DNA of 64,000 nucleotides from NCBI GenBank assembly GCA_946612115.1, contig CAMOEI010000001.1, positions 40,813 through 104,812 of the forward strand. Reading direction: 5' to 3'. The DNA is from an uncultured Bacillales bacterium. Its GTDB lineage: Bacteria; Bacillota_I; Bacilli_A; RFN20; CAG-826. Below the pieces are notes generated by a model. That model was not told the origin of the DNA, searched no databases, and saw nothing but the letters and a program-made list of their open reading frames with translations. The translations under genes and the position numbers were made by a program. Positions within the stretch are counted from its first letter, which is position 1, and each line of letters opens with the position of its first letter. Below are positions 33,896 through 59,679 of the stretch, piece after piece.

Positions 33896-33972
<77 letters not shown>

Positions 33973-34112
33973 TAATCGTATACATACTTTGATACAAAGT
34001 GGAATATGCGAAAAACCGCAAAAATGCTCAGAAATGGGCATTTTTTCTTATATTTCTAATAAATAATGAATAATTAGTCAGCTCTTTTGACAGAATCCTT
34101 GCTTCAGCTAGG

Positions 34113-34195
34113 TACCCTTTAGAAATACGGAAGCACCCCTTGGAAATACGGAAATACCTATGGGTAAGACAGAACACCCTTTTTAATACAGAACA
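34113..34195 (+). repeat. four tandem ~21-bp iterons upstream of the R-M operon
   Basis: TACCCTTTAGAAATACGGAAG (34113-34133), CACCCCTTGGAAATACGGAAA (34134-34154), TACCTATGGGTAAGACAGAA (34155-34174), CACCCTTTTTAATACAGAACA (34175-34195). Head-to-tail with no spacers, period about two helical turns. Confidence 0.8.
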
Positions 34196-34260
34196 AAAAA
34201 TAAAGAAAAAAATCATTTATACCCTTCACTAGAGGGGTATTTTATGATAGACTAACCCTA

Positions 34261-36758: not shown

Positions 36759-36760
36759 TC

Positions 36761-39017: not shown

Positions 39018-40652
39018 TTATTTGCTGAAGTCTACACCAAATAGTGAGCGGTCATCAGGACCAAGTTGTACTCTAGTGGCAAAATCAATAATTGCTTGGG
39101 CAGAAGAATCAAGATTCTTATTGCCGTCATAGACCATAAAGATTTGTTTGCCTTTTATTCCAGCATAGAGTTTTATAATTTCTTGCATTGAGTAGTCTTC
39201 AATTTGCTTTGATATAACGCTATCGTGAGCAAGGAGCGGAAGCTGGGATGTCATAAGTACAGCGATATCAAACATGATAAGAGCTCTTTGACTCGAACCA
39301 GTTCCTTCGTCATTAGGGATAGTAAAATAATACTTATTTAAATCGCTGAGTCTAATATTAGGAGCTTGTCTTCGTCCAGAATAGAAATTCCTATTTATCT
39401 CAGAAATTTTTCCATTAACAATATTTTGAACCTCAATTAAAGATGCTTTGCCTTCAGTGGCAAGCTTTTCCTGTTTCTTTCCTAGTGTTTCCTTGTTGTT
39501 TGAGTTTTCGACATAGAGTTCATTTTGCTTTGTAAGTCTTCTAACATCAGTTTCAAGTCTTAACATTTCTTGGAAAACAGCTTCAGGGACTGTCTTTTCA
39601 ATATGAACAATATTTTTATATTTGTCTTCAAGCTCTGTGATTTGTTCATCTAGTTTAGCTATGCTCTTTAAGGCTTTCTTTCTTTCATTTTCTGATTGCT
39701 CATTAAAAATGGAAGTAAGTTTTTGGTGGAAATCTTCAATGTCGGAAAGATGCTTGAATTCAAATCCAGGGAATATAAGTTTCAATTCTTCTAAATCACT
39801 TTCAAAGTCTTTGCTGCTTTTATTCTTGATTTTTTCAAGATTTTTTATTTGGTTTTCATATTGAGATTTAGTAGCTTTTAATGACTCGATAGCAGTAAGA
39901 AGAGTAACGGCTTCTTTGTTTTCTTGATAGTCCTTACTATAAGTGCCATCCAAGTATTGTTTTCTAAGTTCTCCCAATTTTTCGTTATATTCGTCAATTG
40001 TTTTTAGGTTCTTTTCGTATTTCTTTTTATCAATTTTTTCGACATATTTATAATCCGAAGATTTTTTAAAAGTAGAAATTTGATCCTCTAAGGTTTCAAT
40101 TTCTTCTTTCAAGGAATCTAGTTGCTTATGACTACCGAAAAGTTTCAAAAAGATTTCAATAGCTTTATCTTTTGGCTGTCTAAATGCAGCATTGATAGGA
40201 TACTTTTCGTTTGTAGTTTCTCTTTGATAAATTCTTAAATAAGGAGCTACCGCTTCTCTAAAGGTCAAATCATCACTGACTTTATATAAGTCATGAAGCT
40301 GCTTTAAATATTCATTGTTTGATAAAGTGGCCTCAATTTCTCCGCCATCATTATAAAAATAAACTTCTTCAGGATTATGCGTTCCCCTAGCATAGTGGTA
40401 TTCTTTTCCATCAAATTCAAAATATGCATGAATAAGGTGGTGTCCTATTTTGTTTACCGCGATATTGTTATGGAACTTATAATCATCTCCTCCAAGCATG
40501 AAATCAATAAGGAGAAGAAGTGTCGACTTACCAATGGAGTTTTTACTATCAGCGGTTCCTAAAACAACATTTAAGCCATCTTTGAAAGTAAAGGATTCTG
40601 GATTACCATTAGCATCTTTTCTAAATTTGTCACAACTCAGTTTAACTAACAT
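39018..40652 (-). CDS. SMC-like ABC ATPase with central coiled coil (LmuB / ABC-3C ATPase-like, DUF2326/DUF3732-type)
   Basis: 544 aa. N-terminal P-loop region GLNVVLGTADSKNSIGKSTLLLLIDFMLGG. About 230 aa of K/E-rich heptad sequence (LKEEIETLEDQISTFKK ... ITELEDKYKNIV). C-terminal GTGSSQRALIMFDIAVL (signature-like) and LPLLAHDSV (Walker B-like). AAGGGGGA SD; 11-nt overlap with the upstream gene. Confidence 0.75.
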   Translation of the reverse strand: MLVKLSCDKFRKDANGNPESFTFKDGLNVVLGTADSKNSIGKSTLLLLIDFMLGGDDYKFHNNIAVNKIGHHLIHAYFEFDGKEYHYARGTHNPEEVYFYNDGGEIEATLSNNEYLKQLHDLYKVSDDLTFREAVAPYLRIYQRETTNEKYPINAAFRQPKDKAIEIFLKLFGSHKQLDSLKEEIETLEDQISTFKKSSDYKYVEKIDKKKYEKNLKTIDEYNEKLGELRKQYLDGTYSKDYQENKEAVTLLTAIESLKATKSQYENQIKNLEKIKNKSSKDFESDLEELKLIFPGFEFKHLSDIEDFHQKLTSIFNEQSENERKKALKSIAKLDEQITELEDKYKNIVHIEKTVPEAVFQEMLRLETDVRRLTKQNELYVENSNNKETLGKKQEKLATEGKASLIEVQNIVNGKISEINRNFYSGRRQAPNIRLSDLNKYYFTIPNDEGTGSSQRALIMFDIAVLMTSQLPLLAHDSVISKQIEDYSMQEIIKLYAGIKGKQIFMVYDGNKNLDSSAQAIIDFATRVQLGPDDRSLFGVDFSK

Positions 40653-40866
40653 AGTGTAAGATTCCCCCTTTCAAAATTTCTATTTTCTTCAATGCATACA
40701 AGCAGTCTAATATGTCAATAAACTCATCGATTGGTATTTTGTTCATTTCTTTATCGGCTCTAAATTGTCTAATCGTCAAGTCTCCTTCCTGGAGCTTTTT
40801 TAGAACCTTAACAATGTATTTTAGTGATGAATCACTATACCTATTAAATTTACTAGGAAACTTCAT
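40642..40866 (-). CDS. small helical middle component of the three-gene system
   Basis: 74 aa from ATG 40866 (GAGGTG 8 nt upstream; track start GTG 40881 less likely). Predicted all-helical, wHTH-like length. Overlaps both neighbours (14 nt and 11 nt). Confidence 0.6.
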   Translation of the reverse strand: MKFPSKFNRYSDSSLKYIVKVLKKLQEGDLTIRQFRADKEMNKIPIDEFIDILDCLYALKKIEILKGGILHYVS

Positions 40867-41986
40867 GACCAAACACCTCACAATCTTGGATGAAATAACA
40901 AACCAAAATTAAACACTGCATATCAAAAGTGGCATATTCACTTGGATTCAATATTTCTCTTGAAATCCATTTCTTAATTTCGTCAATAATAAGCCTTTTA
41001 TCAGTTGTTGTGGTGGAAATAGCTTCGTAAGCATCTCTCACTGAAGAAAGAACGTTATTTAACTCGCTTGTTGATAAGTCTGTGTAAGAATTGAAATAAG
41101 TTTTAATCTTTGTGTAGTATTGGCTAGAGATGATGGAATAAATTTCATCATAATACTCAGTACCAAGTTTGGTTTCTATTGCAATCGGATCATAAAAAAT
41201 CTCTTTATCAACTTTAATGTGAGCTATTGAAGAATTTGATAATTTCTTAACGCATTCCTTAAGTTTTTCTGAAATTTCATAATTGTTTAATTCAGCTTTA
41301 ATTTCAGCTTTAAGGATAATCCCTCTTTTGATGTTGTAGAGGTCTACGATTTCATCTCGTTCAGCATTTGGAATCAAAGAGATAGCAACTTTATTAAAAG
41401 AACTCGATACTAATAAGCAGTTTTCATAATCGTCTTCGTTTTCAGGTTCTTTTATATTGAATGAACTAAAAAGTTCATCTTTAAGCTCTTGGCTAATACT
41501 TTTTTCATAAATATGAATGACTTTGTAAGTTGTTGAATCGTTTGGATTTAACTTTTTCCCTGTCATAGGACAAAGGCCATCAACTTCATTGCAAAGAAGA
41601 TTTATAAACTCAATATTTCTTTCGTCATTCATATAACAATAAGGAACTGAAAGAGCTCTTTCATACCAAGCCTTAAAATCATTAGAGTCGGTCACATCAT
41701 GATCGACTGTTTTTATTATGCTTATTAGTTTCTTTGCTAGAGCATATGCAAGAGGAAGCTTTAAAACGGAACCAGCAGTATAGCCAAATTCATTGGCTAT
41801 TCTTGAAAGTCTTCCGTCACTTAATTTTCCAACAAAATATTCAGTAGTTGATTCAATAGGATTTTCTTTCCTTAAAGGAAAAACCATAGAGGCGGTTAGC
41901 GTTTTGTTGACCATGAACTTAGAAGCATCGCCTTGTCTTGAAGGTGTAGAAAAATAAGGGCATCCGACAGCATCAAAAATTTCCAT
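40853..41986 (-). CDS. first gene of the three-gene system: putative effector/sensor, no recognisable catalytic domain
   Basis: 377 aa. C-terminal helical half ending FDMQCLILVCYFIQDCEVFG. N-terminal half has only a degenerate HNH-like string (CPMTGKKL..VIHIY ... ENCLLVSSSFNK). The open frame continues upstream to 42058, where AGGTGA precedes an in-frame ATC. Confidence 0.6.
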   Translation of the reverse strand: MEIFDAVGCPYFSTPSRQGDASKFMVNKTLTASMVFPLRKENPIESTTEYFVGKLSDGRLSRIANEFGYTAGSVLKLPLAYALAKKLISIIKTVDHDVTDSNDFKAWYERALSVPYCYMNDERNIEFINLLCNEVDGLCPMTGKKLNPNDSTTYKVIHIYEKSISQELKDELFSSFNIKEPENEDDYENCLLVSSSFNKVAISLIPNAERDEIVDLYNIKRGIILKAEIKAELNNYEISEKLKECVKKLSNSSIAHIKVDKEIFYDPIAIETKLGTEYYDEIYSIISSQYYTKIKTYFNSYTDLSTSELNNVLSSVRDAYEAISTTTTDKRLIIDEIKKWISREILNPSEYATFDMQCLILVCYFIQDCEVFGHEVS

Positions 41987-47525: not shown

Positions 47526-49544
47526 ATGAAGAGTGAATTATTATCAAATGCTTTGAATTATATAAATCCAAGCAATCTTTCTTACTTAGATTGGCTCCGT
47601 GTTGGTATGGCTTTAAAAACAGAAGGCTATTCAATCGATGACTTCATTAAATGGTCTTATAAAGATCCAGTAAAAGCCAAACTTACCGACTTTGAAAGAA
47701 AATGGAATTCCTTCAATGAAAGTGGTGTTACTGGTGCAACAATCATGGAACTTGCTAAGCAAGAAGGCTTCATTCCTAAAAGATATGAAGGCGATGGTTG
47801 CATGGATTTTAATGACACAATCGAATTTGATGGAACTCAAGAAATCCTCTCTAAGCCAGCTGAGCCAAGTGGTGGAGAGCAACTCATTAAATACTTAAAA
47901 GCTTTATTCAATGATTCTGACTATGTTGGTTTCGTTACATCAAATGCATTCTTTGATACCGCTAAAGGGAAGTGGCTTCCTGGGAATTGCGTTTATCATA
48001 AAACTTGCCGCGATATTATCGAGGATATTTATCATTATGGCGATGATTTAGGTGCCGCAATCGGAGATCCTAAATTAGAAGCTGGAGCTTGGATCAAATT
48101 CAATGCTTTAGATGGTAGTGGCTATAAGGATAAGAATGTAACTTCTTATAAATATGCATTAGTTGAAGCGGATGGAGAAACTCTTGAACTTCAAAGATTC
48201 ATCTATGATGATTTAAGGCTTCCAATTGCTGCTTTAGTGTTTAGTGGACTTCGTTCTTTACATGCTATCGTTCATGTCGATGCAATTAGTGAGAGGGAAT
48301 ATAAAGAGAGGGTAAATTTCCTTTATTCTTATCTCAAAAGCAAAGGCTTACGAGTGGATGAAAACAATAAGAATCCATCTAGGCTTTCAAGAATGCCAGG
48401 AGTAAGCCGCAATGGCGTTATGCAAAAACTTATTGCAACTAATATTGGCTGTAAAGATTGGGATGATTGGAGAAAATACATTGCTTCAATTGATAATCCT
48501 CTTCCTCAAATTAAGTTCTTTAAAGACTTAGATGGGTGGCCAGAACTCGCTCCTGAGTTAATTGAAGGAGTTTTGAGAAAAGGCCATAAAGCCATAGTCA
48601 CTGGAGGTAGCAAAACAGCCAAGACTTTTGCTCTAATGCAACTAGCAGTTTGCATAGCAAACAAACTCAAATGGATGGGTAAACTACAATGCTTTCAAGG
48701 CAAAGTACTTTATATTGATTTTGAGTTGAGCGAAGCTAGCTCATGGGATAGGCTCCATAAAATAATAGATGCCTTAGGCTTAGGCACTGATTGTTTAGAA
48801 AACATTGCTATTTGGTCATTAAAAGGCCAAGCAACAACTTTGGATAATCTCGCAGATAAAATCATTAGGAAATGCAAAGCTAATGGTTTTGATGTAGTCA
48901 TTTTAGATCCAATCTATAAAGTCTTATTCGGAGATGAAAATAGTGCTTCAGACATGGGCAAATTCACAAATCAATTAGATAGGATTGCCGCTGAAGCTGG
49001 AGTTTCAGTAATTTACTGTCATCATCACTCTAAAGGTGCTCAAGGAAATAAGAAATCTTTAGATAGGGGCAGTGGAAGCGGTGTTTTCTCTCGTGATGCT
49101 GATGCTATTATCGACATTATTGAACTTGAGCTATCTCAAAAAGTAATTGATGAATATGCGGACAAAAAGACCGATAGGGGTTTTCGCATCGAAATTACAA
49201 CTAGAGAATTCCTCAATCCTGAAAACTTCTATATTTGGTTTAGCTATCCTCTTCATAAGTTTGATTCAGCTGGAGCTCTTGGAAAATTGCATGCCGCTGG
49301 AGAAATAGAAGCAAAAGACAATAAAAAGTCCGCGGATGAAAAAAGAGCGGAAGAGATAGTAAGACGATATGAGGAAATTGCTTCATTCAAACAAGTTCTA
49401 GAATTAAGCGTTTCTCAAATTGCTGAATACTTAACTGTAGACGAAAAAACTATAAAAAGAGCAATCGCAGCATCTAAAGGCCGTCTTAAAATCGAAGACA
49501 AAACTAGAGTTATCTTAACTGGGGAAGGGGGTCAAGAGGGCTAA
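47526..49544 (+). CDS. phage DNA primase/helicase (PriCT-like N-terminus, prim-pol-like centre, RepA/AAA_25-like ATPase)
   Basis: 672 aa. LSYLDWLRVGMALKTEGYSIDDFIKWS (PriCT-like), Walker A-like VTGGSKTAKTF, Walker B VVILDPIYK, CHHHSKG. Confidence 0.65.
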   Translation: MKSELLSNALNYINPSNLSYLDWLRVGMALKTEGYSIDDFIKWSYKDPVKAKLTDFERKWNSFNESGVTGATIMELAKQEGFIPKRYEGDGCMDFNDTIEFDGTQEILSKPAEPSGGEQLIKYLKALFNDSDYVGFVTSNAFFDTAKGKWLPGNCVYHKTCRDIIEDIYHYGDDLGAAIGDPKLEAGAWIKFNALDGSGYKDKNVTSYKYALVEADGETLELQRFIYDDLRLPIAALVFSGLRSLHAIVHVDAISEREYKERVNFLYSYLKSKGLRVDENNKNPSRLSRMPGVSRNGVMQKLIATNIGCKDWDDWRKYIASIDNPLPQIKFFKDLDGWPELAPELIEGVLRKGHKAIVTGGSKTAKTFALMQLAVCIANKLKWMGKLQCFQGKVLYIDFELSEASSWDRLHKIIDALGLGTDCLENIAIWSLKGQATTLDNLADKIIRKCKANGFDVVILDPIYKVLFGDENSASDMGKFTNQLDRIAAEAGVSVIYCHHHSKGAQGNKKSLDRGSGSGVFSRDADAIIDIIELELSQKVIDEYADKKTDRGFRIEITTREFLNPENFYIWFSYPLHKFDSAGALGKLHAAGEIEAKDNKKSADEKRAEEIVRRYEEIASFKQVLELSVSQIAEYLTVDEKTIKRAIAASKGRLKIEDKTRVILTGEGGQEG

Positions 49545-49560
49545 TAAAAAAATTAGCTTC

Positions 49561-49652
49561 TCGCATGCGATGAGGACAAAAATAAACGGACAAATTGGAC
49601 AAGTTTTTAATAAACTTGTTCCATATTTGTACCTATTTATTGTCCCATGTCC
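49561..49652. repeat. inverted arrays of GGACAA hexamers in the primase-rusA intergenic region
   Basis: Palindrome TCGCATGCGA 49561-49570. GGACAA at 49574, 49588 and 49597. Complementary TTGTTCC 49616, TTGTACC 49627, TTGTCC 49640, TGTCC 49648. The central pair forms the hairpin GGACAAGTTT-ttaat-AAACTTGTTCC. Confidence 0.6.
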
Positions 49653-49693
49653 AACGCGAGTGAGAGGCTGAGAAAAAAGTCCGAAAAAGGAAC

Positions 49694-50116
49694 ATGAAAT
49701 TCTTCTTACTACTTGATCCACCTACAGTAACTGCTCAAGAAAAGAAAGTCGCTATCATTCGTGGCAAACCTAGAATCTATGAACCAGAAAATGTAGCTAA
49801 GGCAAAAGCCGAACTCAAAAAGTATCTCAAACCATTCGTTCCAAAAAGTCCACTTAATGGACCACTGAAACTTACGGTTAGCTGGCTATTCTATATAGGC
49901 ACTAAACATAAGCATATGGAATATAGGATGACTAAGCCTGATACCGATAACTTAGAAAAACTTCTCAAAGACTGCATGACTGAACTTAAGTTTTGGGAAG
50001 ATGATGCTCAAGTAGCGGTGGAGCATGTTGAGAAGCTGTGGTCTAAAGAGCCAACTGGAATCTCGATAGAAATCACCGCATTGCCAAAATTCAAGGAGGT
50101 AGCACATGACAACTGA
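49694..50116 (+). CDS. rusA: RusA-family Holliday junction resolvase
   Basis: KPDTDNLEKLLKDCM...WEDDAQV catalytic Asp pattern. Confidence 0.85.
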   Translation: MKFFLLLDPPTVTAQEKKVAIIRGKPRIYEPENVAKAKAELKKYLKPFVPKSPLNGPLKLTVSWLFYIGTKHKHMEYRMTKPDTDNLEKLLKDCMTELKFWEDDAQVAVEHVEKLWSKEPTGISIEITALPKFKEVAHDN

Positions 50117-50540
50117 TGAAGTGAAAAAGTACTTATCAAGCTATTACTACCTATCCCTCAAAGTTGATTCTCTAAAAGAGGAGCTTGGATATCTTGAAAT
50201 TTTAGCCAATGGTACGCAAGGGGTTATAACTGATGAACCAAGAGTTCAAAAGTCACCTTCATTAAAAGCTCCGTTTGTTAAATACATAGACAAGATATTC
50301 GCTAAGCAACAACAAATTGATGAGAAGGTTGAAGAACTCGTAAAGCTAAGAGGAGAGATTGAAAACGTTATCGCGAGCGTTGATAATCCACTTATAGAAA
50401 TCGTGCTCACGTATAGATATCTAAATTTCTTTTCTTGGAAAGAGATAGCCAAGAAGCTTAACTATGCTATTTCCTATATCTACGAGCTTCATCGAGATGG
50501 ACTTTGGAAGATAAGTTTGAAAGACCATAGTAAATCCTAA
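50106..50540 (+). CDS. ArpU/RinA-like (sigma region-4-like) phage late regulator
   Basis: 144 aa. C-terminal IEIVLTYRYLNFFSWKEIAKKLNYAISYIYELHRDGL HTH preceded by a coiled region, typical of DUF1492/ArpU-type regulators. Confidence 0.6.
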   Translation: MTTDEVKKYLSSYYYLSLKVDSLKEELGYLEILANGTQGVITDEPRVQKSPSLKAPFVKYIDKIFAKQQQIDEKVEELVKLRGEIENVIASVDNPLIEIVLTYRYLNFFSWKEIAKKLNYAISYIYELHRDGLWKISLKDHSKS

Positions 50541-50662
50541 AAAAGCATAGCTTTCCATAGTTGCTAAGAGTCGGTATTCCTTGATATGCTATAATCAGAA
50601 AAATTATAGAAACCTCGCTAGAAATAGTGGGGTTTTATTTTACACATTTGGAGGATACGAAA

Positions 50663-51172
50663 ATGGCAAAACCATTAGATACCTTTGAGATGTGGGTAAA
50701 TGATGGTTTGTGGCCAAAGTACCGAGATTTCTTAACAAAAGCAGTGAGAAACAATTTCTCCCAAAAAGAAATTTGCAGACGCCTTCAGATGGATCAAAAC
50801 ACATTCTCAAGGCTGAAGAAAAAACACGTAGAAATTGTCGAAGCTATGGAAGAAGGCAAAGTTGGCCTTAAAGAAGACTTAATCAATGCGATGCTTCAAC
50901 TCGCGTTAGGATATGACGAAGTTACCGAAACAAAGTTAGCTAGTGAAAAATCAAGTGCTGGTAGAGGTGGTGCTGATAAAAAGGCATACCGCCAAGTTAG
51001 ACACATTGGTCCTGACTATAAAGCAGCGGTTTATTTGCTCAAGATTAACTTTGGTCTCGATTACGATCCTAACTCTGAGCAAATCAAATTGATGATTAAA
51101 CGAGCTAAAGAAGGAAAGGAGACATGGGGTAATGGCAAAATTATCAAAGAAGATAGTGATAAAGAAGATTAA
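50663..51172 (+). CDS. HTH DNA-binding protein (TerS-like/Psq-like HTH), function unclear
   Basis: Start moved to ATG 50663 (GGAGGATACGAAA upstream). FSQKEICRRLQMDQNTFSRLKKK HTH. An extended -10 TGcTATAAT lies about 70 nt upstream. Confidence 0.45.
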   Translation: MAKPLDTFEMWVNDGLWPKYRDFLTKAVRNNFSQKEICRRLQMDQNTFSRLKKKHVEIVEAMEEGKVGLKEDLINAMLQLALGYDEVTETKLASEKSSAGRGGADKKAYRQVRHIGPDYKAAVYLLKINFGLDYDPNSEQIKLMIKRAKEGKETWGNGKIIKEDSDKED

Positions 51173-52385
51173 TGAACTAGTTGCCTATGGCAATAACCCA
51201 AGAATCAACGATGAAGCTGTCGATGCTGTTGCCGCTAGTATTCAAGCCTTTGGATTTAGAAACCCAATTCTAATTGATTCAAATAACGTTATTGTTGCTG
51301 GCCACACTAGATTAAAAGCCAGCCAAAAGTTAGGAATCGAAGAAGTCCCTTGTATTGTTATTGACGATTTAACTGATGATGAAGTTAGAGCATTGAGACT
51401 CGCGGATAATAAAACTGCTGAATTAGCTCGATGGGACATGGGCAAGTTAAGCGAAGAAATCAAAAACATCGATATGGATTTACTCCAATTCGGTTTTGAA
51501 GATTTGCTTGATAAATTAGATGATGAACCTGAAGAAGATGACTTTGCTGAAGATGAAGAGCTTCCTGAAGTTCCTTATTCTCAAAAAGGTGACTTATTTC
51601 TTCTTGGTAATCATAGATTAATATGTGGAGATTCCACAAAACTTGAGGATGTTAAAACTCTTGTTGGAGAAACTCAAGTCGACCTTCTTTTTACTGATCC
51701 GCCTTATAACGTGGATTATGAAGGTTCAACTGGAATGAAGATTCAAAATGATAAACAAGATAATGACTCATTCTTTAAGTTCTTAACAAGTGCATTTCAA
51801 AATGCCTTTGAAGTTCTTAAACCAGGAGCGGCTTTCTATGTTTGCCATAGCGATGTTGAAGAGCTCAACTTCCTCTTAGCAGTTAAAAATGCTGGATTCC
51901 ACATGAGCCAAATTATTATTTGGTTAAAGAATTCGTTGGTTCTTGGAAGAAAAGATTATCATTCAAGAAACGAACCAATCTTATATGGATGGAAAGAAGG
52001 TGCTGGTCATTACTTCATTGATGACAGAACCCAAGACACAATTTGGGAATATGATAAGCCAAAGCACAATGACCTTCATCCAACTATGAAGCCAATTCCT
52101 CTAGTGGCTAGAGCTATCAAGAATAGTTCAAGAAGAGGAGAAAACGTTCTCGACTTATTTGGTGGTAGTGGTACAACTCTCATTGCCGCTGAGCAAGATG
52201 GTAGAAATGCCTTCTTGGTCGAAATTGATGAAAAGTATGTAGATGTAATTGTTAAACGTTACATTCGATACATTGGCAGTCTTGATGGCTGCTTTTTAAT
52301 TAGAAACGGAGAAAAGATTCCTCTTAGTGATATTGAGGATTATCAAGTACTCCAAAAAGATGAAGAGCTAAGCGATAAAGCTTAA
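51132..52385 (+). CDS. ParB-like nuclease domain fused to N6/N4 DNA methyltransferase (beta class)
   Basis: N-terminal ParB/Srx box (NPRINDEAVDAVAASIQAFGFRNPILI, GHTRLKA). MTase motif IV TDPPYN and C-terminal FGGSGTT SAM motif. Confidence 0.88.
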   Translation: MAKLSKKIVIKKINELVAYGNNPRINDEAVDAVAASIQAFGFRNPILIDSNNVIVAGHTRLKASQKLGIEEVPCIVIDDLTDDEVRALRLADNKTAELARWDMGKLSEEIKNIDMDLLQFGFEDLLDKLDDEPEEDDFAEDEELPEVPYSQKGDLFLLGNHRLICGDSTKLEDVKTLVGETQVDLLFTDPPYNVDYEGSTGMKIQNDKQDNDSFFKFLTSAFQNAFEVLKPGAAFYVCHSDVEELNFLLAVKNAGFHMSQIIIWLKNSLVLGRKDYHSRNEPILYGWKEGAGHYFIDDRTQDTIWEYDKPKHNDLHPTMKPIPLVARAIKNSSRRGENVLDLFGGSGTTLIAAEQDGRNAFLVEIDEKYVDVIVKRYIRYIGSLDGCFLIRNGEKIPLSDIEDYQVLQKDEELSDKA

Positions 52386-52519
52386 GCTTTTTATTCGCGT
52401 GCAGGAACTAACCCTGCTTTTAAATTGACCTTATGGATTCATTTATTTCTCCATGATTACCTCCTTTACCAAGTGGGTGAGGTTGATGACGGTCAATCTC
52501 ACTCATGCGGAGGTGGCAT

Positions 52520-53677
52520 ATGTTAAAAGTTGTTGAATTATTTTCTGGGATTGGAGCTCAAAAAGAAGCCTTAAAAATTGCTGGTATTCCTCATGAAGTA
52601 GTGGCAACAAGCGAAATTGATAAGTACGCAATTAAGACTTATCGATTCCTTCATGGTTGGACTACTAATTTAGGAGATATCAAAACTATAAAAGAGCTTC
52701 CTCAAGTTGACCTTTGGACTTATAGTTTCCCTTGCACTGATATTTCTTTAAGCGGAAGACTCAAAGGATTTGAAAAAGGCTCCGAAACTGGATCATCTCT
52801 TCTTTGGGAAGTGCAAAGATTATTAGAAGTTTCTAAAGAAAAAGGAACTCTTCCTAAAGTATTGCTCATGGAAAACGTGAAAAACCTAGTCTCAAAAAGG
52901 TTTATTAACGAATTCCTAGTTTGGGTAGATTATCTCAAAGAGCTAGGATATAAATCTTTCTATAAAGTTCTGAATGCCAAAGATTATGGTGTTCCGCAAA
53001 ACCGAGAAAGAACAATAATGGTCTCCATTCTTGATTATGATGGAGATTTTATTTTCCCAGAACCAGTTGAACTAAAGGTTACTCTTCAAGACCTCTTAGA
53101 AAAAGAAGTGGAAGAGAAATATTTCCTTAGTGATAGGTTCATCAAATATGCATGCGATTTAAGTAATAGAAATGGTTTCATACGCGGAACCAAATTTAGA
53201 CCTCATGATAATAAAAGCAAAGTAGCTTATACCATCTCGACTTGTCCTGGTGGAAGAGCTACTGATAACTTTGTTATGATTCCAGCTAAAAACATTAGTG
53301 AAGAAGAAAAAGAAGTGATTCTAGTTCCTCAAGCTACTAAGGCTGGATATGCTGCTGCCGAAGTTGGAGACGGCATTTATACAAATAGATGCAAATCCAA
53401 AAGAGGGGTAGTGCAAAAGAGCATTATTCCAACTCTTAAATGTACAGTCACTGATGTTGGAGTTGTTGTAAATGACAAAAATGATCTCATCAATATTAGA
53501 AGGCTAACTCCTAGAGAATGTTGGAGATTGATGGGTTGGAATGATGAAAGAATCGATAGAGCTTTTGAAGCTGGATGTAGTGAAACTCAATACTACAAAA
53601 TGGCTGGAAATTCTATCGTTGTTAACGTCTTAGTTGAGGTGTTTAAATCCCTTAAAAATTGTATCAATATAACTTGA
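52520..53677 (+). CDS. DNA (cytosine-5) methyltransferase (orphan, phage-borne)
   Basis: Start moved to ATG 52520 (GGAGGTGGCAT upstream). ELFSGIGA, PCTDIS, ENVKN, QNRER, GNSI motifs. Confidence 0.9.
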   Translation: MLKVVELFSGIGAQKEALKIAGIPHEVVATSEIDKYAIKTYRFLHGWTTNLGDIKTIKELPQVDLWTYSFPCTDISLSGRLKGFEKGSETGSSLLWEVQRLLEVSKEKGTLPKVLLMENVKNLVSKRFINEFLVWVDYLKELGYKSFYKVLNAKDYGVPQNRERTIMVSILDYDGDFIFPEPVELKVTLQDLLEKEVEEKYFLSDRFIKYACDLSNRNGFIRGTKFRPHDNKSKVAYTISTCPGGRATDNFVMIPAKNISEEEKEVILVPQATKAGYAAAEVGDGIYTNRCKSKRGVVQKSIIPTLKCTVTDVGVVVNDKNDLINIRRLTPRECWRLMGWNDERIDRAFEAGCSETQYYKMAGNSIVVNVLVEVFKSLKNCINIT

Positions 53678-53727
53678 TAATAATCAAAGATTATTAGAGT
53701 ATATGTATGACCAAAGGAGGTCAGAAT

Positions 53728-53928
53728 ATGCACTATATCGAAACCAAGAAGGGACTTGAAACCTTGCTAAAAAGATATCAAGAAGCTGGAGTTACTGATG
53801 AAGCCTATCCAGTAGATAGATGGATTAGCGTTATCAAAGGCTGCCTTAAAGAAGGCTTAGCCATGGACGAAGTGGACTTTGAGAACACTCCTAAAGAATT
53901 AAAACCACTTTGGAGGGGGCTCAAGTAA
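53728..53928 (+). CDS. hypothetical phage protein
   Basis: 66 aa from ATG 53728 (AAGGAGG 7 nt upstream). Confidence 0.5.
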   Translation: MHYIETKKGLETLLKRYQEAGVTDEAYPVDRWISVIKGCLKEGLAMDEVDFENTPKELKPLWRGLK

Positions 53929-54179
53929 TGTACTTAGTAACTGAAGGCAAAAGAAAAGAAAACCAACTTGCTTATGCTCCAAAGACTCAAGAATATGTCT
54001 ATTTCCATCATGGAAAGGAAATATGGAGAGAAAAAGGAGATACTGCTCTATTAGATTATTTCAACGAAGTAAGAGCCGACATTCACTATTTTGAAGATAA
54101 GGATGTCGAAAATAATCCAATTTGGAAGAAATACAGTGATTCTTGCTTTGAATTTGAAAAGAAAGAGAGAGGCTGGTAA
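53928..54179 (+). CDS. hypothetical phage protein
   Basis: 83 aa; ATG overlaps the previous stop (TAATG), GGAGGGGG upstream. Confidence 0.5.
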   Translation: MYLVTEGKRKENQLAYAPKTQEYVYFHHGKEIWREKGDTALLDYFNEVRADIHYFEDKDVENNPIWKKYSDSCFEFEKKERGW

Positions 54180-54418
54180 TGAATAAGCTAGAAATAGTGG
54201 TAAAGCTCATTGATAACAAGGGTATCCAAATTGGAAGAACTGTCTTTCTCTTTAGTAAACCGAGAATGGTGGTAGGCTTTTGGAACAATTTCTTAGTCTT
54301 TGCGACTGATAACCCTAAAACAATGTCGGAAGCTCAAGTTCTAATCTATACGATTGATGAACTCAAAGAAATTTACAAAGAAGGGAGCCTACAAGGCTTG
54401 GTGGAAATAGATGGCTAA
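54179..54418 (+). CDS. hypothetical phage protein
   Basis: 79 aa; TAATG coupling to the previous gene. Confidence 0.5.
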   Translation: MNKLEIVVKLIDNKGIQIGRTVFLFSKPRMVVGFWNNFLVFATDNPKTMSEAQVLIYTIDELKEIYKEGSLQGLVEIDG

Positions 54419-54578
54419 AGTTGGTGACCATATCTTAATTATTGAAATGAAAGATGAACCTTCCTATAACGGAAAAGAAGGCGAAGTTCTCTTCATAGAT
54501 GACATCGGACAAATTCATGGTACTTGGGGTGGATGTGCTCTCATCCCAGAAGTTGATAAGTTCGAAGTTATTAGATAG
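54411..54578 (+). CDS. DUF4314-like small protein (not in ORF track, 55 aa)
   Basis: My translation: MAKVGDHILIIEMKDEPSYNGKEGEVLFIDDIGQIHGTWGGCALIPEVDKFEVIR. The GTWGGC motif and length match my memory of DUF4314. 8-nt overlap with the previous gene. Confidence 0.5.
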   Translation: MAKVGDHILIIEMKDEPSYNGKEGEVLFIDDIGQIHGTWGGCALIPEVDKFEVIR

Positions 54579-54612
54579 TCTCTAAGAATAAATTCTATAG
54601 AGTCTATCAATA

Positions 54613-54636
54613 AGCACTCTAAAAGGGGTGCTTTTT
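54613..54636 (+). terminator. rho-independent terminator separating the small-gene block from the metK-like/HNH/terminase block
   Basis: AGCACTC-taaaag-GGGTGCT (7-bp stem, one G.U) followed by TTTT. Confidence 0.5.
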
Positions 54637-54707
54637 ACTTCTTTACTCAATACATAGTATTCAGTAAAGGCAAAATGAGCATTTTTAAGAAAAAGGAGAA
54701 ACTATCT

Positions 54708-55490
54708 ATGATAGAAAAAGTGAATAAATTCCATCCAGACAAATTAGCGGATAGAATCGCTGGTGCTTTAGTTGACCTAGCTTATAAGGCCGAGAGAGCT
54801 CCAAAAATTGCAGTTGAGGTTTTAATTGGACATGGTTGTTGCCATATTATTTGCGAAACCTCGGTTCATCTTAAAAAGAAAGATGTTAGAAATGCCGTTT
54901 ATCGTATTGCTGGAAAACTAGCGGTGGACTATGTAGAAGTTCCTCAAGATTTCCATTTATCGCAAAACCAAGCTGTAAAGTTCCGCTGCGGTGATAATGG
55001 GATTTTCAAGGGTGTTCCTCTAACCGAAGAGCAAAAAAGACTTTCACAAATTGCTAGGGATATCACTGAAGCCTATCCATACGATGGGAAATATATACTT
55101 GATAAAGAAAGACTCATTATTTGCCAAAGCAATGCTGATTCTTCAGAACTTAAGAGGATCTTCAAAAATGCTGAAGTAAATCCAATTGGTGATTGGAGTG
55201 GTGGCACTAATGTAGATACTGGTGCAACGAATAGAAAGCTTGGCTCTGATATGGGAGATTCAATCACTGGCGGTGGTCTTCATGGGAAAGATCTCAGCAA
55301 AGCTGATGTTTCAGTAAATATCTATGCTTGGCTTAAAGCTCAAAGAACCAAAAAGGTTGTTGAACTCTCATGTGCAATCGGAGATGAATTCATTGATGGA
55401 AAACCATATGGTGAAATTGTTTGTATTGCTAAAGACTTCATTACAAAATTAGGTGGCTTCGAGAAGTTCGCTGAATGGGGCTTATTTTAA
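54708..55490 (+). CDS. compact S-adenosylmethionine synthetase (MetK) homologue, about 260 aa
   Basis: Start moved to ATG 54708 (AAGGAG 9 nt upstream). KFHPDKLADRIAGALVD vs MetK GHPDKIADQISDAVLD. CGDNGIF vs GDQGLMF. NPIGDWSGG..DTGATNRK..GGGLHGKDLSKADVS vs NPTGRFVIGG..DCGLTGRK..GGGAFSGKDPSKVDRS. Confidence 0.7.
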   Translation: MIEKVNKFHPDKLADRIAGALVDLAYKAERAPKIAVEVLIGHGCCHIICETSVHLKKKDVRNAVYRIAGKLAVDYVEVPQDFHLSQNQAVKFRCGDNGIFKGVPLTEEQKRLSQIARDITEAYPYDGKYILDKERLIICQSNADSSELKRIFKNAEVNPIGDWSGGTNVDTGATNRKLGSDMGDSITGGGLHGKDLSKADVSVNIYAWLKAQRTKKVVELSCAIGDEFIDGKPYGEIVCIAKDFITKLGGFEKFAEWGLF

Positions 55491-55783
55491 TGCTCAATAA
55501 GTGCAAAGCTATAAACCGCTTCTATAGAAGTAAAGAATGGCTCTTAGCTAGACAGCAAAAGATAGCTTCTTGTAATGGAAGATGCGAAAAGTGTGGTGCT
55601 ATAGGAGAGGAAGTTCATCATAAGATTCCTTTGACTCCTAAAAACATAACTGATCCGAGAATCACTCTTGGAGAAGATAATCTCATCTACCTATGTAAAG
55701 ACTGCCATAATAAGGAGCATCATAGGTTTGAAAAGAAAGAACCAATCTTTGATGAAGAAGGGAATCTCAAACCTTATAAATAA
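55490..55783 (+). CDS. HNH endonuclease (packaging-associated)
   Basis: CEKCG...VHHKIPL...DNLIYLCKDCHNKEHH. TAATG coupling to the previous gene. Position just upstream of terS/terL. Confidence 0.88.
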   Translation: MLNKCKAINRFYRSKEWLLARQQKIASCNGRCEKCGAIGEEVHHKIPLTPKNITDPRITLGEDNLIYLCKDCHNKEHHRFEKKEPIFDEEGNLKPYK

Positions 55784-56041
55784 AAAACCTCTATCTTACC
55801 GTCTTTCAAGCTCGGAGCTTAGAGGCTAGGGCTCGTTGCCAAGTTTCAAGCTCGGCCGATTCCCTAAAGAAAGATTAACATTTCTTTCTAGCTTATAAAA
55901 TATTTTTTCACCCCTCCCCAGGTCACTCTTTGAGTGATGCTCAAGGTACCGACGGCGGCTACCTCAGAAATACGTGGGGCAAAAATTTTGAAAAACTGAG
56001 TTTCCCAAAAACTGGGGAACTTTTTTCTAGGAGGAGAAGTC
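55784..56041 (+). other. non-coding packaging region, candidate cos site
   Basis: 258 bp without an ORF between HNH and terS. Direct repeat TTTCAAGCTCGG at 55804 and 55844. Locally GC-rich CCGACGGCGGCTACC around 55949-55963. Hairpin GTTTCCC-aaaaact-GGGGAAC + T6 at 56000-56026. Confidence 0.45.
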
Positions 56042-56371
56042 GTGGATACAAAAAAGATTAAAAAAGAGTATGAGCGACTTCATGCTCTATTTAAAGATGT
56101 CGATGAGACAAAAACAAAACTAGTAGATGAGCTGCTTCATAAAGCGGCTTTTTTAAAAGTTCAACTTGATGATCTCCAAGATGAAGTCATTAAACATGGA
56201 GCGGTGGAATATTCTTCCAAAGGAAACTCACGCCAAACACCATGCTATAAGACTTATCTAGCTTCTCTTGGAGTTTACCAAACTGTTATTAAAACTCTTA
56301 ATTCAATCATTGGTAAAAATGCCATTGATGAAGATGATGAGTTTGACGAATTTATGAAGCAAATAAAATAG
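56042..56371 (+). CDS. terminase small subunit (P27 family-like)
   Basis: 109 aa from GTG 56042 (AGGAGGAGAAGTC upstream). Helical protein in the canonical position; LHKAAFLKVQLDDLQDEV...NSRQTPCYKTYL resembles P27-type TerS. Confidence 0.65.
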   Translation: MDTKKIKKEYERLHALFKDVDETKTKLVDELLHKAAFLKVQLDDLQDEVIKHGAVEYSSKGNSRQTPCYKTYLASLGVYQTVIKTLNSIIGKNAIDEDDEFDEFMKQIK

Positions 56372-56382
56372 GAGATAGCTCA

Positions 56383-57861
56383 ATGGCTTACGAGATTAAT
56401 ATTCATGTTAACAAAAATGGGAAGCTAGAAACTGAAGAGCTTCCTTTGTCTATTTCTGTCTATAGAGAAAGCAAAAGAGTAAAACTCTTATTTGAGGTAG
56501 ATGAGGAAATCGATAGCACTTATCATTACCTTAAACTTACCCATGCAAAAGTAGCTTATCTTTATAGAATCCATAATAACGAATTTGAAATTCCTAAAGC
56601 GGTGACAGCATATGAAGGTAGATGGGAGCTTAGCTTTGTAGCTTGCGATGAAGTGGCTAATAGCGATTCAACGATTACCGCGAATTACATCTATGCTTCT
56701 GAGCCAATAGTGGCGGACGTCACTAAAGGCAACTTAGGAATCATCCATACTTCAGAAGAATTCACTTTGTTATCTCAGCTTGTTGAAGGTAGATTCGATC
56801 ACTTTGAAATCCCAGAAGGAGTGACTTATATAACCACCAACTTCCTAGCGGATGCCACAAATGAATTTACTGTATATATTCCTTACACGGTCACCACAAT
56901 AAAAGCCCATGCTTTTTATCAAAGTGGTTGCACTCATATCGAATTTGAACCTAGTAGTCAATTAGCAACCTTAGAGAATTATGCTCTTTATCGCATTGAG
57001 AATTTAGATGATATTAATTTCCCATCATCCTTATCGAGTTGGGGTCAATACAACTTAAGTGGATGCGGTAGTGAGATAGTCACCTTTGGTGCTAACTCAA
57101 ATTTAAGACAATTGAGTTCATATGCATTTTGGAATATTCCAAGATTAAAAAAGATATATTTGCCAGATAGACTGCAATCTTTCACTGGTGGAACAGCAGT
57201 GGTCAAGGGATGCCCTCTTTTAAACGAAATTTGGTTCCCTAACACGATTAATGTTCCTATTCCAATGGAAGCAATCCAAGATTGTCCACTGCTCACGAAG
57301 ATTACTCTCCAAAGTAATTTTAATGTTAATGCTAACTTCGGTAACTGCACCTCTTTAACAAAAGAATCAGTAGTAGCAATGTTTAGAGCTTTGAAGGATT
57401 TAAGTGGATCAGCTGCAAAGGTGATTTCTCTTCACCAAGTTGTGGTGGATAGACTTAGTGATGAAGATTTAGATATTGCTTATAACAAAAATTGGACTGT
57501 TGGTATTGTTGGCGGAGTTGATCCTCTTGCTGACAAACATTTCCATTACGAAAATAGCTCAACTTCAATCAACATCGATTTCGGCCAAGGAATTGGTTGT
57601 ATTTCTTCTGACTCCTTAGATGCTGCGGTCAACTTTGAATATGAATATTTAACTGATACAACTTTCAAAATTACTTTGACTGGTGATTATGTAGAAAGTT
57701 CATGGGGCGGATATAGACCTGCTCCAGTCGGTGAAAGAATCAATGAAACTGGAATCATTGCATTGAGTAGTGGAGAAGTTTCCTCGATTAAACTTAAAAC
57801 TTATTCCGCTAACAACGTTGGAACAAATAGAACATTCAATTTAGTTAGGGAGGAAGGATGA
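56383..57861 (+). CDS. BspA-type leucine-rich repeat (LRR_5-like) protein inserted between terS and terL
   Basis: 492 aa. Repeats of the type I.IP..VT.I...AF..C..L..I.. (TVYIPYTVTTIKAHAFYQSGCTHIEF, LENYALYRIENLDDINFP, LSSYAFWNIPRLKKIYLP, EAIQDCPLLTKITL). Confidence 0.7.
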   Translation: MAYEINIHVNKNGKLETEELPLSISVYRESKRVKLLFEVDEEIDSTYHYLKLTHAKVAYLYRIHNNEFEIPKAVTAYEGRWELSFVACDEVANSDSTITANYIYASEPIVADVTKGNLGIIHTSEEFTLLSQLVEGRFDHFEIPEGVTYITTNFLADATNEFTVYIPYTVTTIKAHAFYQSGCTHIEFEPSSQLATLENYALYRIENLDDINFPSSLSSWGQYNLSGCGSEIVTFGANSNLRQLSSYAFWNIPRLKKIYLPDRLQSFTGGTAVVKGCPLLNEIWFPNTINVPIPMEAIQDCPLLTKITLQSNFNVNANFGNCTSLTKESVVAMFRALKDLSGSAAKVISLHQVVVDRLSDEDLDIAYNKNWTVGIVGGVDPLADKHFHYENSSTSINIDFGQGIGCISSDSLDAAVNFEYEYLTDTTFKITLTGDYVESSWGGYRPAPVGERINETGIIALSSGEVSSIKLKTYSANNVGTNRTFNLVREEG

Positions 57862-57862
57862 T

Positions 57863-58042
57863 ATGGAAACAATCATTGAAAAAGGCAAAAAAGTCTTAGT
57901 GGCTAGAAGTGGATATTTAATCCAAAGTGTCACCGATGGCTCAATATTAGGAAAGAAACTCATCCTCAGCAAAAAGGATAGCGAAATCCATTATCGTGAG
58001 ATTCCTATTCCATCAGTTGAAAGTGAAAATAACCAAGAATGA
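57863..58042 (+). CDS. small hypothetical protein (59 aa, not in ORF track)
   Basis: My translation METIIEKGKKVLVARSGYLIQSVTDGSILGKKLILSKKDSEIHYREIPIPSVESENNQE. Starts 1 nt after the LRR stop (GGAGG upstream); ATGA overlap with terL. Confidence 0.45.
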   Translation: METIIEKGKKVLVARSGYLIQSVTDGSILGKKLILSKKDSEIHYREIPIPSVESENNQE

Positions 58043-59679
58043 GTTATTTAATCGATTATATAAACGAAATCGAAGCTGGACGAATAATTGCTGGGGAAGA
58101 ACTAAAAAGTGTCTTAAATGGTCTTAAAAATGATTTAAATGACCCTTCCTATATTTACGATGAAGCTCCTGGGAAACTAAGAATCGACTTTATTGAAAAA
58201 TTTTGCAAGCACACAAAATCTCCATTTAATGGTCAACCATTCATTTTAGAGCTATGGGAAAAGGCTTTATTAGAATGTGCCTATGGCTTTAAGATGGCAG
58301 ACACTGGCCTTAGAAGATTTAATGAAGTTATTCTCCTAATCGCTCGTAAAAATGGAAAGACAACGTTTATTGCTGGCATTGATTTATCGGAATTCTTCCT
58401 TTCAAAAGGCGGAACCGATATTGTGTGTGCTAGTAACACTAATGACCAAGCCAGCATCCTCTTTGAGGAAATCAACAACATGAGAGAGCAATCCAAAGCT
58501 CTTAGAAATGAAAGACGTTCCAAGAAGAATATCTTTTATATCTATTCTCCAAGGAACAAAAACAAGATTAAAAAGCTATCCGCTCAAAGCCGTAATAAAG
58601 ATGGTTATAACATCGAAGTTGGATGTATTGATGAAGTGCATGAGATGACTGATTCAAAAGTCTATGATGCAATCAAGCAATCTCAATCAACTAAGAAAGA
58701 ACCTCTAATCTTTATCATTACAACTGAAGGCACAACAGTGGATGGCTTTTTAGATAGTAAGCTCGAATATTGTCGAAAGATGATAAAAGGAGAAATCAAA
58801 GACATAAGAATTCTCCCATGGCTTTATACCCAAGATGGAGTTGATGAGATCTTTTCTGATCCGACTTCTTGGACTAAAAGCAATCCTTCATTAGGCAATA
58901 TTAAGCTTCGTTCTTATCTTGAAGACATGATGGTGAAGAGTCAAAACGACTTATCAACTAGAGTCACCATGCTATGCAAGGACTTTAATATCAAGCAACT
59001 TGATAGTGGTTCTTGGTTAACTTTCAATGATTTGAATAACGAAACACGATTTAAACTAGAAGAACTTAGAGATAGCTATGCTATTGGTGGAGTTGACCTC
59101 AGCTCAACAACTGACTTAACTGCTGCGGTTTTGCTAGTTATTAAAAATGGCAAGAAGTATGTAATCCCTCACTTCTTTATGCCAGGAGATTTAATTGAAC
59201 AAAGGGTAAAGGAAGATAAGATTCCATACGACCTTTGGATCAAAAAGGGATTAGTTTCAGTAACCAATGGAAATCAAAATGATTTTTCCTTAGTTACTCA
59301 ATGGTTCTTATCAATGGTGAGAAACTACGGCATTAGACCTCTATGGATCGGCTATGATCCGTGGAATTCTCAGTACTGGGTAAAGGAAATGGAAGATGCT
59401 GGATTCACAATGGAAAAAATCCGTCAAGGAATCTATACCCTTTCAGAACCAATGAAGCAGCTTGAAGGAGACCTAAAAAACAAGCTTGTTATCTATGATA
59501 ATAATCCTATTCTTAAGTGGTGCTTCTCAAACACTCAAGCCAAGATTGACATCAATGGCAACATTCAACCAAGCAAGTTAAATTCAAAGCTTAGAAGAAT
59601 TGATGGATGTGTTGCTTTGATTATTGCCTATGCAGTTTTAAACCGCTATAAGAACGATTACGAGAACATGATTAGTTAG
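58039..59679 (+). CDS. terL: terminase large subunit
   Basis: 546 aa. Walker A-like LLIARKNGKTT, Walker B IDEVHE, C-terminal RNase H-like nuclease (GGVDLS...D). Position upstream of the portal gene. Confidence 0.9.
   Translation: MSYLIDYINEIEAGRIIAGEELKSVLNGLKNDLNDPSYIYDEAPGKLRIDFIEKFCKHTKSPFNGQPFILELWEKALLECAYGFKMADTGLRRFNEVILLIARKNGKTTFIAGIDLSEFFLSKGGTDIVCASNTNDQASILFEEINNMREQSKALRNERRSKKNIFYIYSPRNKNKIKKLSAQSRNKDGYNIEVGCIDEVHEMTDSKVYDAIKQSQSTKKEPLIFIITTEGTTVDGFLDSKLEYCRKMIKGEIKDIRILPWLYTQDGVDEIFSDPTSWTKSNPSLGNIKLRSYLEDMMVKSQNDLSTRVTMLCKDFNIKQLDSGSWLTFNDLNNETRFKLEELRDSYAIGGVDLSSTTDLTAAVLLVIKNGKKYVIPHFFMPGDLIEQRVKEDKIPYDLWIKKGLVSVTNGNQNDFSLVTQWFLSMVRNYGIRPLWIGYDPWNSQYWVKEMEDAGFTMEKIRQGIYTLSEPMKQLEGDLKNKLVIYDNNPILKWCFSNTQAKIDINGNIQPSKLNSKLRRIDGCVALIIAYAVLNRYKNDYENMIS

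Follow-up and report, generated by a model that had tools for sequence, protein, structure and literature searches.

An uncultured Bacillales bacterium carries, within the 64,000-nucleotide (nt) stretch of contig CAMOEI010000001.1 that we analyzed (the window), a gene predicted to code for a short relative of MetK, the S-adenosylmethionine (SAM) synthetase or methionine adenosyltransferase (MAT). Upstream of this short metK and on the same strand lie, in order, genes for a PD-(D/E)XK/DUF2800 nuclease, an AAA_24 protein, an SNF2-type helicase, a primase, RusA, and a DUF1492 regulator; these are followed by a 181-amino-acid (aa) open reading frame (ORF), a ParB_N-fused N6/N4 DNA methyltransferase (ParB-MTase), a Dcm-type C5 cytosine DNA methyltransferase, and four small ORFs, one of which codes for a DUF4314 protein. 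Downstream are genes for an HNH endonuclease, a phrog_1066 protein, and a leucine-rich-repeat (LRR) protein, and then, in order, the large terminase, portal, prohead protease, and capsid genes. The gene order therefore places metK in a prophage, at the junction of the replication and modification genes with the packaging genes.

The initial annotation of this locus, made by eye, had described a MetK-like ORF of about 260 codons with a good Shine-Dalgarno sequence, one-third shorter than Escherichia coli MetK, with its stop codon overlapping the start of the HNH gene and two DNA methyltransferase genes upstream in the same direction. All of these features are borne out (Table 1): the protein has 260 residues against 384 in E. 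coli MetK, and the MetK motifs that had been picked out (HPDKLAD, GDNG, and NPIGDWSGGTNVDTGATNRKLGSD...GGGLHGKDLSKAD) are all present. An alternative in-frame ATG at 54675 would extend the protein to 271 aa, and we take 54708 as the start because the homologues all begin with MFEKVN or MIEKVN. The metK TAA stop (55488-55490) shares its final A with the HNH start codon at 55490, giving TAATG; the HNH ORF has a further in-frame ATG at 55475. Both methyltransferase genes lie 1.0-3.6 kb upstream of metK, and none of the ORFs between them and metK is of restriction-enzyme size.

Table 1. Short metK, its motifs, and neighboring features of the prophage (nucleotide positions in the window, or residues of the short MetK; paired residues are those of E. 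coli MetK)
Feature	Position	Strand	Description and basis
ParB_N-fused N6/N4 DNA methyltransferase	51132..52385	+	Pfam ParB_N and N6_N4_Mtase
C5 cytosine DNA methyltransferase, Dcm-type	52505..53677	+	Pfam DNA_methylase, E = 1e-67
Terminator-like hairpin with T-rich tail	54612..54633	+	Between DUF4314 gene and short metK; consensus scan only
Shine-Dalgarno AAGGAG	54693..54698	+	9 nt 5′ of the metK ATG; read from sequence
Short MetK-type SAM synthetase, coding sequence	54708..55490	+	260 aa plus stop; predicted from ORF, profiles, and model
HPDKLAD motif	residues 9-15		Seen in the window protein
HPDK motif	54732..54743	+	H9, D11, K12 = H14, D16, K17; alignments, conservation
GDNG motif	54990..55001 (residues 95-98)	+	D96 = D118; hhalign, conservation
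DGK motif	55083..55091	+	D126, K128 = D163, K165; probable equivalence
NPIGDWSGGTNVDTGATNRKLGSD...GGGLHGKDLSKAD motif region	residues 158-200		Present in the window protein
GGGLHGKDLSKAD loop	55269..55307	+	K194, D195, K198, D200 = K265, D266, K269, D271; alignments, conservation
HNH endonuclease	55490..55783	+	Pfam HNH, E = 5e-7; PHROG HNH families; start overlaps MetK stop
Terminator-like hairpin, 10-bp stem and T run	55998..56022	+	3′ of HNH gene; consensus scan only
phrog_1066 protein, 109 aa	56042..56371	+	PHROGs: function unknown
BspA-type LRR protein, 492 aa	56383-57861	+	Pfam LRR_5, E = 8e-23
Large terminase	58039..59679	+	Pfam TerL_ATPase and TerL_nuclease

Homology, fold, and catalytic residues

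The homology of the window protein to MetK is far beyond chance. The Pfam model S-AdoMet_synt_N (PF00438) matches it with 39.2 bits (E = 1.1e-9), above the gathering cutoff of 33.1, and a phmmer search of the PDB matched only MATs, with E values down to 1e-9 and residues 3-68 and 123-235 covered. A profile of 45 family members finds the solved MATs in the PDB at E = 5e-17, and hhalign aligns residues 2-260 with residues 8-344 of E. coli MetK at a probability of 98.3%; identity to the solved MATs is about 20%. The protein is also matched over residues 1-260 by phrog_1569 (E = 2.5e-66), which PHROGs lists as of 'unknown function', and it fits the length (about 260-290 aa) of the short phage MetK family that NCBI labels 'S-adenosylmethionine synthetase N-terminal domain-containing protein'.

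An AlphaFold2 model of the window protein, built on a 45-sequence alignment, has a predicted local distance difference test score (pLDDT) of 96.1 and a predicted template-modeling (TM) score of 0.93, with zero segments below a pLDDT of 50; confidence is lowest at residues 81-100, the position of the mobile gating loop of MATs. When the model was compared with the PDB using Foldseek, the top 50 matches were all MATs (E values down to 2e-19), with alignments spanning 340-365 columns, and the same comparison with the viral BFVD library gave nothing below E = 0.001. The TM-scores of the PDB matches are 0.68-0.79 when normalized by the query and about 0.5 when normalized by the target, as would be expected if the protein were a smaller but full version of the fold. 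Secondary-structure elements follow the same order in the model as in the MetK alignment, and this order also fits the layout of E. coli MetK in published structures.

The initial annotation had described a truncated MetK fold and proposed that structure prediction be used to map the missing segments onto the MetK domains. In the model all three MAT domains are kept and none is deleted, so that 'trimmed' is a better description than 'truncated'; deletion of a whole domain is ruled out by the model together with the full-length Foldseek matches. The losses map to the periphery of the fold, with the 124-residue shortfall divided among loops, hairpins, and helix ends at about a dozen places and some 40 residues close to or at the C-terminus. 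In an alignment anchored on the conserved motifs, and in E. coli gene numbering, the protein lacks the loop at 78-89, some of the loop at 100-116, and 127-137. It has also lost the loop ahead of the DxK strand, the 174-182 hairpin, roughly 20 residues in the helix and loop of 192-224, two turns from the helix at 271-289, the hairpin at 302-320, and the 40 or so residues close to or at the C-terminus. Members of the family end instead in a conserved and family-specific motif, GGFEKFAEWGL.

Alignment with MetK also shows that the mapped ATP, methionine, Mg2+, and K+ ligands, whose functional roles come from published structural work, are all present in the window protein. In addition to the residues in Table 1, they include (query residue/E. 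coli residue in mature numbering) E37/E42, E50/E55, Q80/Q98, W163/F230, D170/D238, R176/R244, K177/K245, and G188-190/G259-261. The initial annotation had named a lack of key binding residues in a proper alignment as grounds for refuting its reading, and the alignment shows the opposite. In MetK, the HPDK residues are phosphate and Mg2+ ligands, and those of the GGGLHGKDLSKAD loop take part in triphosphate and Mg2+ binding. The DGK motif is invariant in the family and begins the strand that follows a long helix in the AlphaFold model, as in MetK, and for these reasons we equate it with D163-A-K165; the pairing of the family DGK with E. coli 'DDGK' by MAFFT, and the hhalign register, which is three residues off, were dropped in its favor. 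The short MetK thus resembles canonical MetK (E. coli, PDB 7LOO and 1FUG; TIGR01034; PF00438, PF02772, and PF02773) in its three-domain fold by Foldseek, in its catalytic, metal, methionine, and adenine ligands by alignment, and in retaining the gating-loop region, and differs from it in length, in its C-terminal motif, in being phage-borne, and in the absence of a SAM riboswitch.

These residues are strongly conserved among the relatives. Each mapped residue is kept in 119-120 of the 120 close homologues, which are themselves 70-89% identical overall; 14 core positions are all kept in 30 of 38 full-length representatives of clusters formed at 50% identity, as are all 17 checked positions in 115 of the 119 sequences of a second set. 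The median ratio of nonsynonymous to synonymous substitution rates (dN/dS) is 0.13 across 764 gene pairs with unsaturated dS, showing that the gene is under purifying selection. In the MAT dimer, each active site is built from residues of both subunits, and because the active-site residues of both subunits are conserved, the short MetK presumably still forms a homodimer.

One family member of 582 aa (P0121) has an insertion of about 380 aa exactly inside the GGGL/HGKD catalytic loop (GGGLHGKD). The insertion starts with CLSGDS and ends with ITGN followed by a Cys, and is intein-like in these sequence features; a Pfam scan of P0121 recognized no intein or Hint domain. Inteins typically insert at functionally critical sites, and if this is one, its position would fit such a role for the GGGLHGKD loop.

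Family distribution and linkage to DNA methyltransferases

Short metK genes are a known class, common in gut and streptococcal phages. A database of 5.8 billion sequences holds at least 8000 homologues, the 120 listed being mostly 260-262 aa long, and 211 clusters formed at 50% identity fall below E = 1e-30. The gene occurs in at least 547 stretches of species-representative genomes (mostly from Clostridia, Erysipelotrichia, and Bacilli) and in at least 548 stretches of IMG/VR viral contigs. It is also found in 25 deposited phages, including gut 'NatCom_' Heliusvirales, whose proteins are 68-73% identical to the window protein, Streptococcus Javan prophages (62-68% identical), Terrisporobacter phage TPDSL_ph1, and Gardnerella phage vB_Gva_AB1, where the gene is annotated as S-adenosylmethionine synthetase.

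The usual order in these relatives is a DUF1492 regulator, HNH, an ORF of about 180 aa, short metK, ParB-MTase, and Dcm. A ParB-MTase homologue comes immediately after metK at 62 of the roughly 72 viral loci whose downstream sequence is long enough, and at 50 of 76 genomic loci, with only a few nucleotides between the two genes. Of the 36 viral loci whose 5-kb flanks are complete, all contain a ParB-MTase homologue and 32 a Dcm homologue as well. The downstream neighbors classed as 'other/unknown' in 21 genomic loci are heterogeneous or spurious ORFs, with no second conserved partner seen among them. The order in the window (ParB-MTase, Dcm, small ORFs, metK, HNH, phrog_1066, LRR protein, large terminase) is the less frequent one, shared with four loci (L004, L031, L032, and L055) and five genomic loci.

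The linkage of metK to methylases recurs in unrelated phages with different packaging machinery. Downstream of one homologue (P0216, 46% identity) come a ParB_N protein and an N6_N4 methylase, encoded separately, and then a Terminase_6C terminase and a Mu-type portal; another (P0198) has a DAM-like/GNAT protein and then a ParB_N protein after it, and a third (P0291) has three different methylases, namely a ParB-MTase, a D12 methylase, and a C5 methylase. In the window itself, metK and the replication genes have relatives at 70% identity or more, unlike the large terminase, whose best matches among 50,697 deposited phage records (from Bacillus, Caldibacillus, and Clostridioides difficile phages) are 40-41.5% identical. 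As no deposited terminase exceeds 41.5% identity to that of the window, the metK and methylase genes are shared among phages with different packaging modules, and the packaging module of the window appears to come from a lineage with no close deposited relative. NatCom phages are absent from the 12 records listed as best matches to the terminase, and, to judge from these comparisons, the window prophage may not be a close member of the Heliusvirales. A Megablast search of positions 54000-58000 against the deposited phages gave zero matches, leaving the region without a close DNA relative among them.

The conserved partner of the short MetK is thus the methylase set and not the HNH or terminase gene. 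The initial annotation had connected the gene both to the phage methylases and to an HNH/terminase block; conserved adjacency in the relatives bears out the first connection, whereas the second is positional only. We rejected HNH as a functional partner, as it lies upstream of metK in most relatives, with the 180-aa ORF between them.

Two family members (P0288 and P0310; L172, L173, and L174, at approximately 3680-5230) keep all of the catalytic residues and lie within contractile-tail baseplate modules. They are flanked by a PAAR-motif protein on one side and a gp25-like sheath initiator or Baseplate_J protein on the other, with no methylase nearby. This placement could reflect a moron insertion site or a virion-associated protein.

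In the window, the metK-HNH pair is flanked on both sides by terminator-like hairpins (Table 1). A scan of positions 49500-58200 found 10 terminator-like sites, compared with 5.7 ± 2.1 in shuffled sequence. The downstream hairpin lies in the 258-nt gap between the HNH and phrog_1066 genes, which may also hold the cos or pac region. From its position, the phrog_1066 protein is probably the small terminase; the LRR gene, lying between it and the large terminase, is in an unusual position for cargo and is kept there in L004, L031, L032, and L055.

Two regions to the left of the replication genes are also of note. Two leftward-transcribed genes at 39018-41986 (-) code for a 544-aa DUF2326 protein and a 377-aa protein with the C-terminal CTD11 domain of ABC-three-component (ABC-3C) conflict systems, and this pair may be a defense cassette. 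Further left, a tRNA gene at 33896-33969 (+) is followed by a second C5 DNA methylase gene (34261-35433) and large ORFs at 35412-36758 and 36761-37993 (+), the latter without a Pfam match; this segment (33896-37993) may be an integration site with a restriction-modification (R-M) cassette.

A SAM riboswitch at a cellular homologue

A cellular homologue of the window protein is under riboswitch control. This 284-aa protein (P0176; MDR0975718.1), 48% identical to the window protein and named 'S-adenosylmethionine synthetase [Christensenellaceae bacterium]' by NCBI, is encoded chromosomally in a Christensenellaceae metagenome-assembled genome, amid genes for EF-G, RNase J, McsB, ClpC, a SpoU methylase, and YebC. 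The region 5′ of the gene (positions 4812-5001 of locus L164) contains a TTGACA/TATAAA promoter, a SAM-I riboswitch, and a terminator. The SAM-I (S-box) aptamer, at 4845-4931, scores 51.7 bits (E = 9.5e-10), above the gathering score of 44.4, and the 5′ arm of the terminator can pair with the closing helix of the aptamer. In many Bacillota, genes such as metK that serve the synthesis or transport of methionine and SAM are controlled by SAM-I riboswitches; because the P0176 gene carries a complete one, at least one cell regulates a short MetK by the level of SAM.

The window copy is different in this respect. Rfam scans of the whole window at gathering thresholds, and of positions 53600-56400 with E values up to 1, detected neither a SAM riboswitch nor another cis-regulatory RNA close to metK, the only match being the tRNA gene described above. 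At most phage loci there is no room for a riboswitch, the metK start being only a few nucleotides from the end of the preceding ORF.

Proposed role and alternatives

Phage-encoded MetK is not new, having been reported in published work on viral metK with dcm and on a truncated prophage MetK beside an endonuclease (bioRxiv 10.1101/2021.01.05.425418; PMC11283538; PMC8223999). Kieft et al. treat metK of viruses as an auxiliary metabolic gene that is widespread, keeps conserved MetK motifs (the same list as the residues mapped here), and has a dN/dS below 1; they also describe metK and dcm as connected and co-occurring on viral genomes, with complete Streptococcus suis viruses encoding both (bioRxiv 10.1101/2021.01.05.425418). 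De Jonge et al. give frequencies of 58.9% for K00789 and 67% for Dcm among the genomes of Ca. Heliusvirales gut phages (PMC11283538). Both read metK as a gene of cysteine and methionine or sulfur metabolism, and the available text of either neither separates the short form nor remarks on its adjacency to a ParB-methylase. Recognition of a trimmed but complete fold, the tight ParB-methylase adjacency, and a riboswitch-controlled cellular homologue were not found in the literature searched, an absence that does not amount to proof.

The closest described example is the MetK of Streptococcus agalactiae prophage 12/111phiA, which Renard et al. describe as a '135-amino-acid truncation' relative to E. 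coli MetK, with an endonuclease gene 1 nt away, and for which they constructed mutants (PMC8223999). From this description, it probably belongs to the same family as the window protein. Its gene order is endonuclease and then metK, whereas metK precedes HNH in the window, and the study addressed host phenotypes rather than enzymology or DNA methylation.

Taking homology, modeled fold, and conserved ligands together, we consider it likely that the window protein is an active SAM synthetase. In the role that we favor, and think somewhat probable as a whole, it would be a compact homodimeric MAT, expressed in lytic growth and free of S-box feedback, that raises the SAM supply for the orphan methylases of the phage. 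A compact but complete MAT would make SAM from ATP and methionine, presumably as a homodimer; transcription of its gene with the lytic operon, and without feedback through a SAM riboswitch, would raise the SAM supply during phage development. The main beneficiaries would be the orphan ParB-N6/N4 methyltransferase, which is the likely principal consumer, and Dcm, as these enzymes would have to modify newly replicated DNA ahead of packaging.

Several observations weigh against this role or against catalytic activity. The window protein scores 47.3 bits with TIGR01034, the equivalog model for canonical bacterial MetK, against a curated cutoff of 309.4; the Pfam model S-AdoMet_synt_M (PF02772) was not detected in it, and S-AdoMet_synt_C (PF02773) reaches 13.1 bits against a cutoff of 25. 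The equivalence of D126 and K128 is based on motif and secondary-structure logic rather than on superposed coordinates. A few divergent clusters (P0141, P0191, P0197, P0217, and P0242) have lost several catalytic residues and look like degenerate offshoots. The metK of the window is not itself adjacent to the methylases: it lies 3′ of Dcm, and the 1 kb between the two contains a terminator-like hairpin and four small ORFs. Certain relatives are located in baseplate modules that have no methylase close by. Most of the linked loci come from related phages, so the synteny is partly inherited and the counts are not independent. The literature searched contained no enzymology of any short member and no enzymology or structure of a phage MetK, although absence there is no proof.

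Alternatively, metK could be an auxiliary metabolic gene or one of lysogenic conversion, expressed in the lysogen and altering methionine, SAM, polyamine, or sulfur metabolism, aggregation, or biofilm formation of the host rather than methylation of phage DNA. In S. agalactiae 12/111phiA, flocculation, chain length, and glycocalyx were altered when the truncated metK of the prophage was deleted or complemented, but the authors note that these phenotypes are confounded by secondary mutations (PMC8223999). An organosulfur auxiliary metabolic role is the interpretation that Kieft et al. give to viral metK (bioRxiv 10.1101/2021.01.05.425418), and the hairpins flanking the metK-HNH pair would suit a separately transcribed cassette. 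The gene lies, however, inside a late lytic array, between the replication and methylase genes and the packaging genes; the sole site resembling a promoter in its vicinity is a weak one (9 of 12 matches) that overlaps the start codon, and such sites are less frequent across the region than in shuffled sequence. With a DNA methylase as the dominant conserved neighbor as well, we regard a metabolic role as unlikely.

Less likely again is a counter-defense role, in which the phage would keep SAM high against depletion by the host or a competitor, or against a riboswitch-limited host metK, and so alter the outcome of SAM-dependent Type I and III R-M or bacteriophage exclusion (BREX) systems, instead of supplying the phage methylases in particular. 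The SAM lyase (SAMase) of phage T3 manipulates SAM in the opposite direction and defeats Type I R-M and BREX (bioRxiv 10.1101/2023.02.27.530186). It is a phage enzyme that alters the host SAM pool to influence DNA methylation and restriction, as the short MetK would; unlike the short MetK, the lyase destroys SAM and inhibits host MetK, is of unrelated fold, and is the product of an early gene. The absence of a riboswitch from the window copy and its presence at the cellular homologue would fit such a role, but more SAM should aid, not hinder, the Type I and III R-M systems that require it. Moreover, no linkage to known anti-defense genes was found, and the literature searched turned up no SAM-depleting defense; we know of none.

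That the protein is instead a non-catalytic mimic of MetK, acting as a SAM- or ATP-binding regulator or decoy or as a poison subunit that heterodimerizes with host MetK, would accord with the failed thresholds of the canonical MetK models and the loss of catalytic residues in the divergent clusters, but is highly improbable given the invariance of catalytic, metal-binding, and substrate-binding residues in the window protein and its 120 closest relatives, the dN/dS of about 0.13, and the riboswitch of the cellular homologue, which is of the kind that controls SAM-synthesis genes.

A bolder version of the SAM-supply role is speculative, and we think that it would probably not hold in full. The short MetK would be the smallest naturally active MAT scaffold, a dedicated riboswitch-free SAM generator paired functionally, and perhaps physically, with the ParB-fused methylases, and would secure methylation at packaging regardless of host SAM homeostasis. 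The family would also have been recruited as a riboswitch-controlled chromosomal gene in a Christensenellaceae metagenome-assembled genome and in baseplate modules beside PAAR proteins, where its position could mean virion-associated delivery.

The general phenomenon is already present in the literature and in database annotations, and this locus adds detail and testable predictions rather than a new principle. If active, the window protein is a very compact MAT, one-third shorter than the E. coli enzyme and with a confident structural model, which could interest enzymologists and those who use MATs to make SAM analogues. If the SAM-supply role is correct, many Bacillota phages bring their own cofactor supply beside their orphan DNA methylases, free of host riboswitch feedback, in a mirror image of the T3 SAM-lyase strategy.

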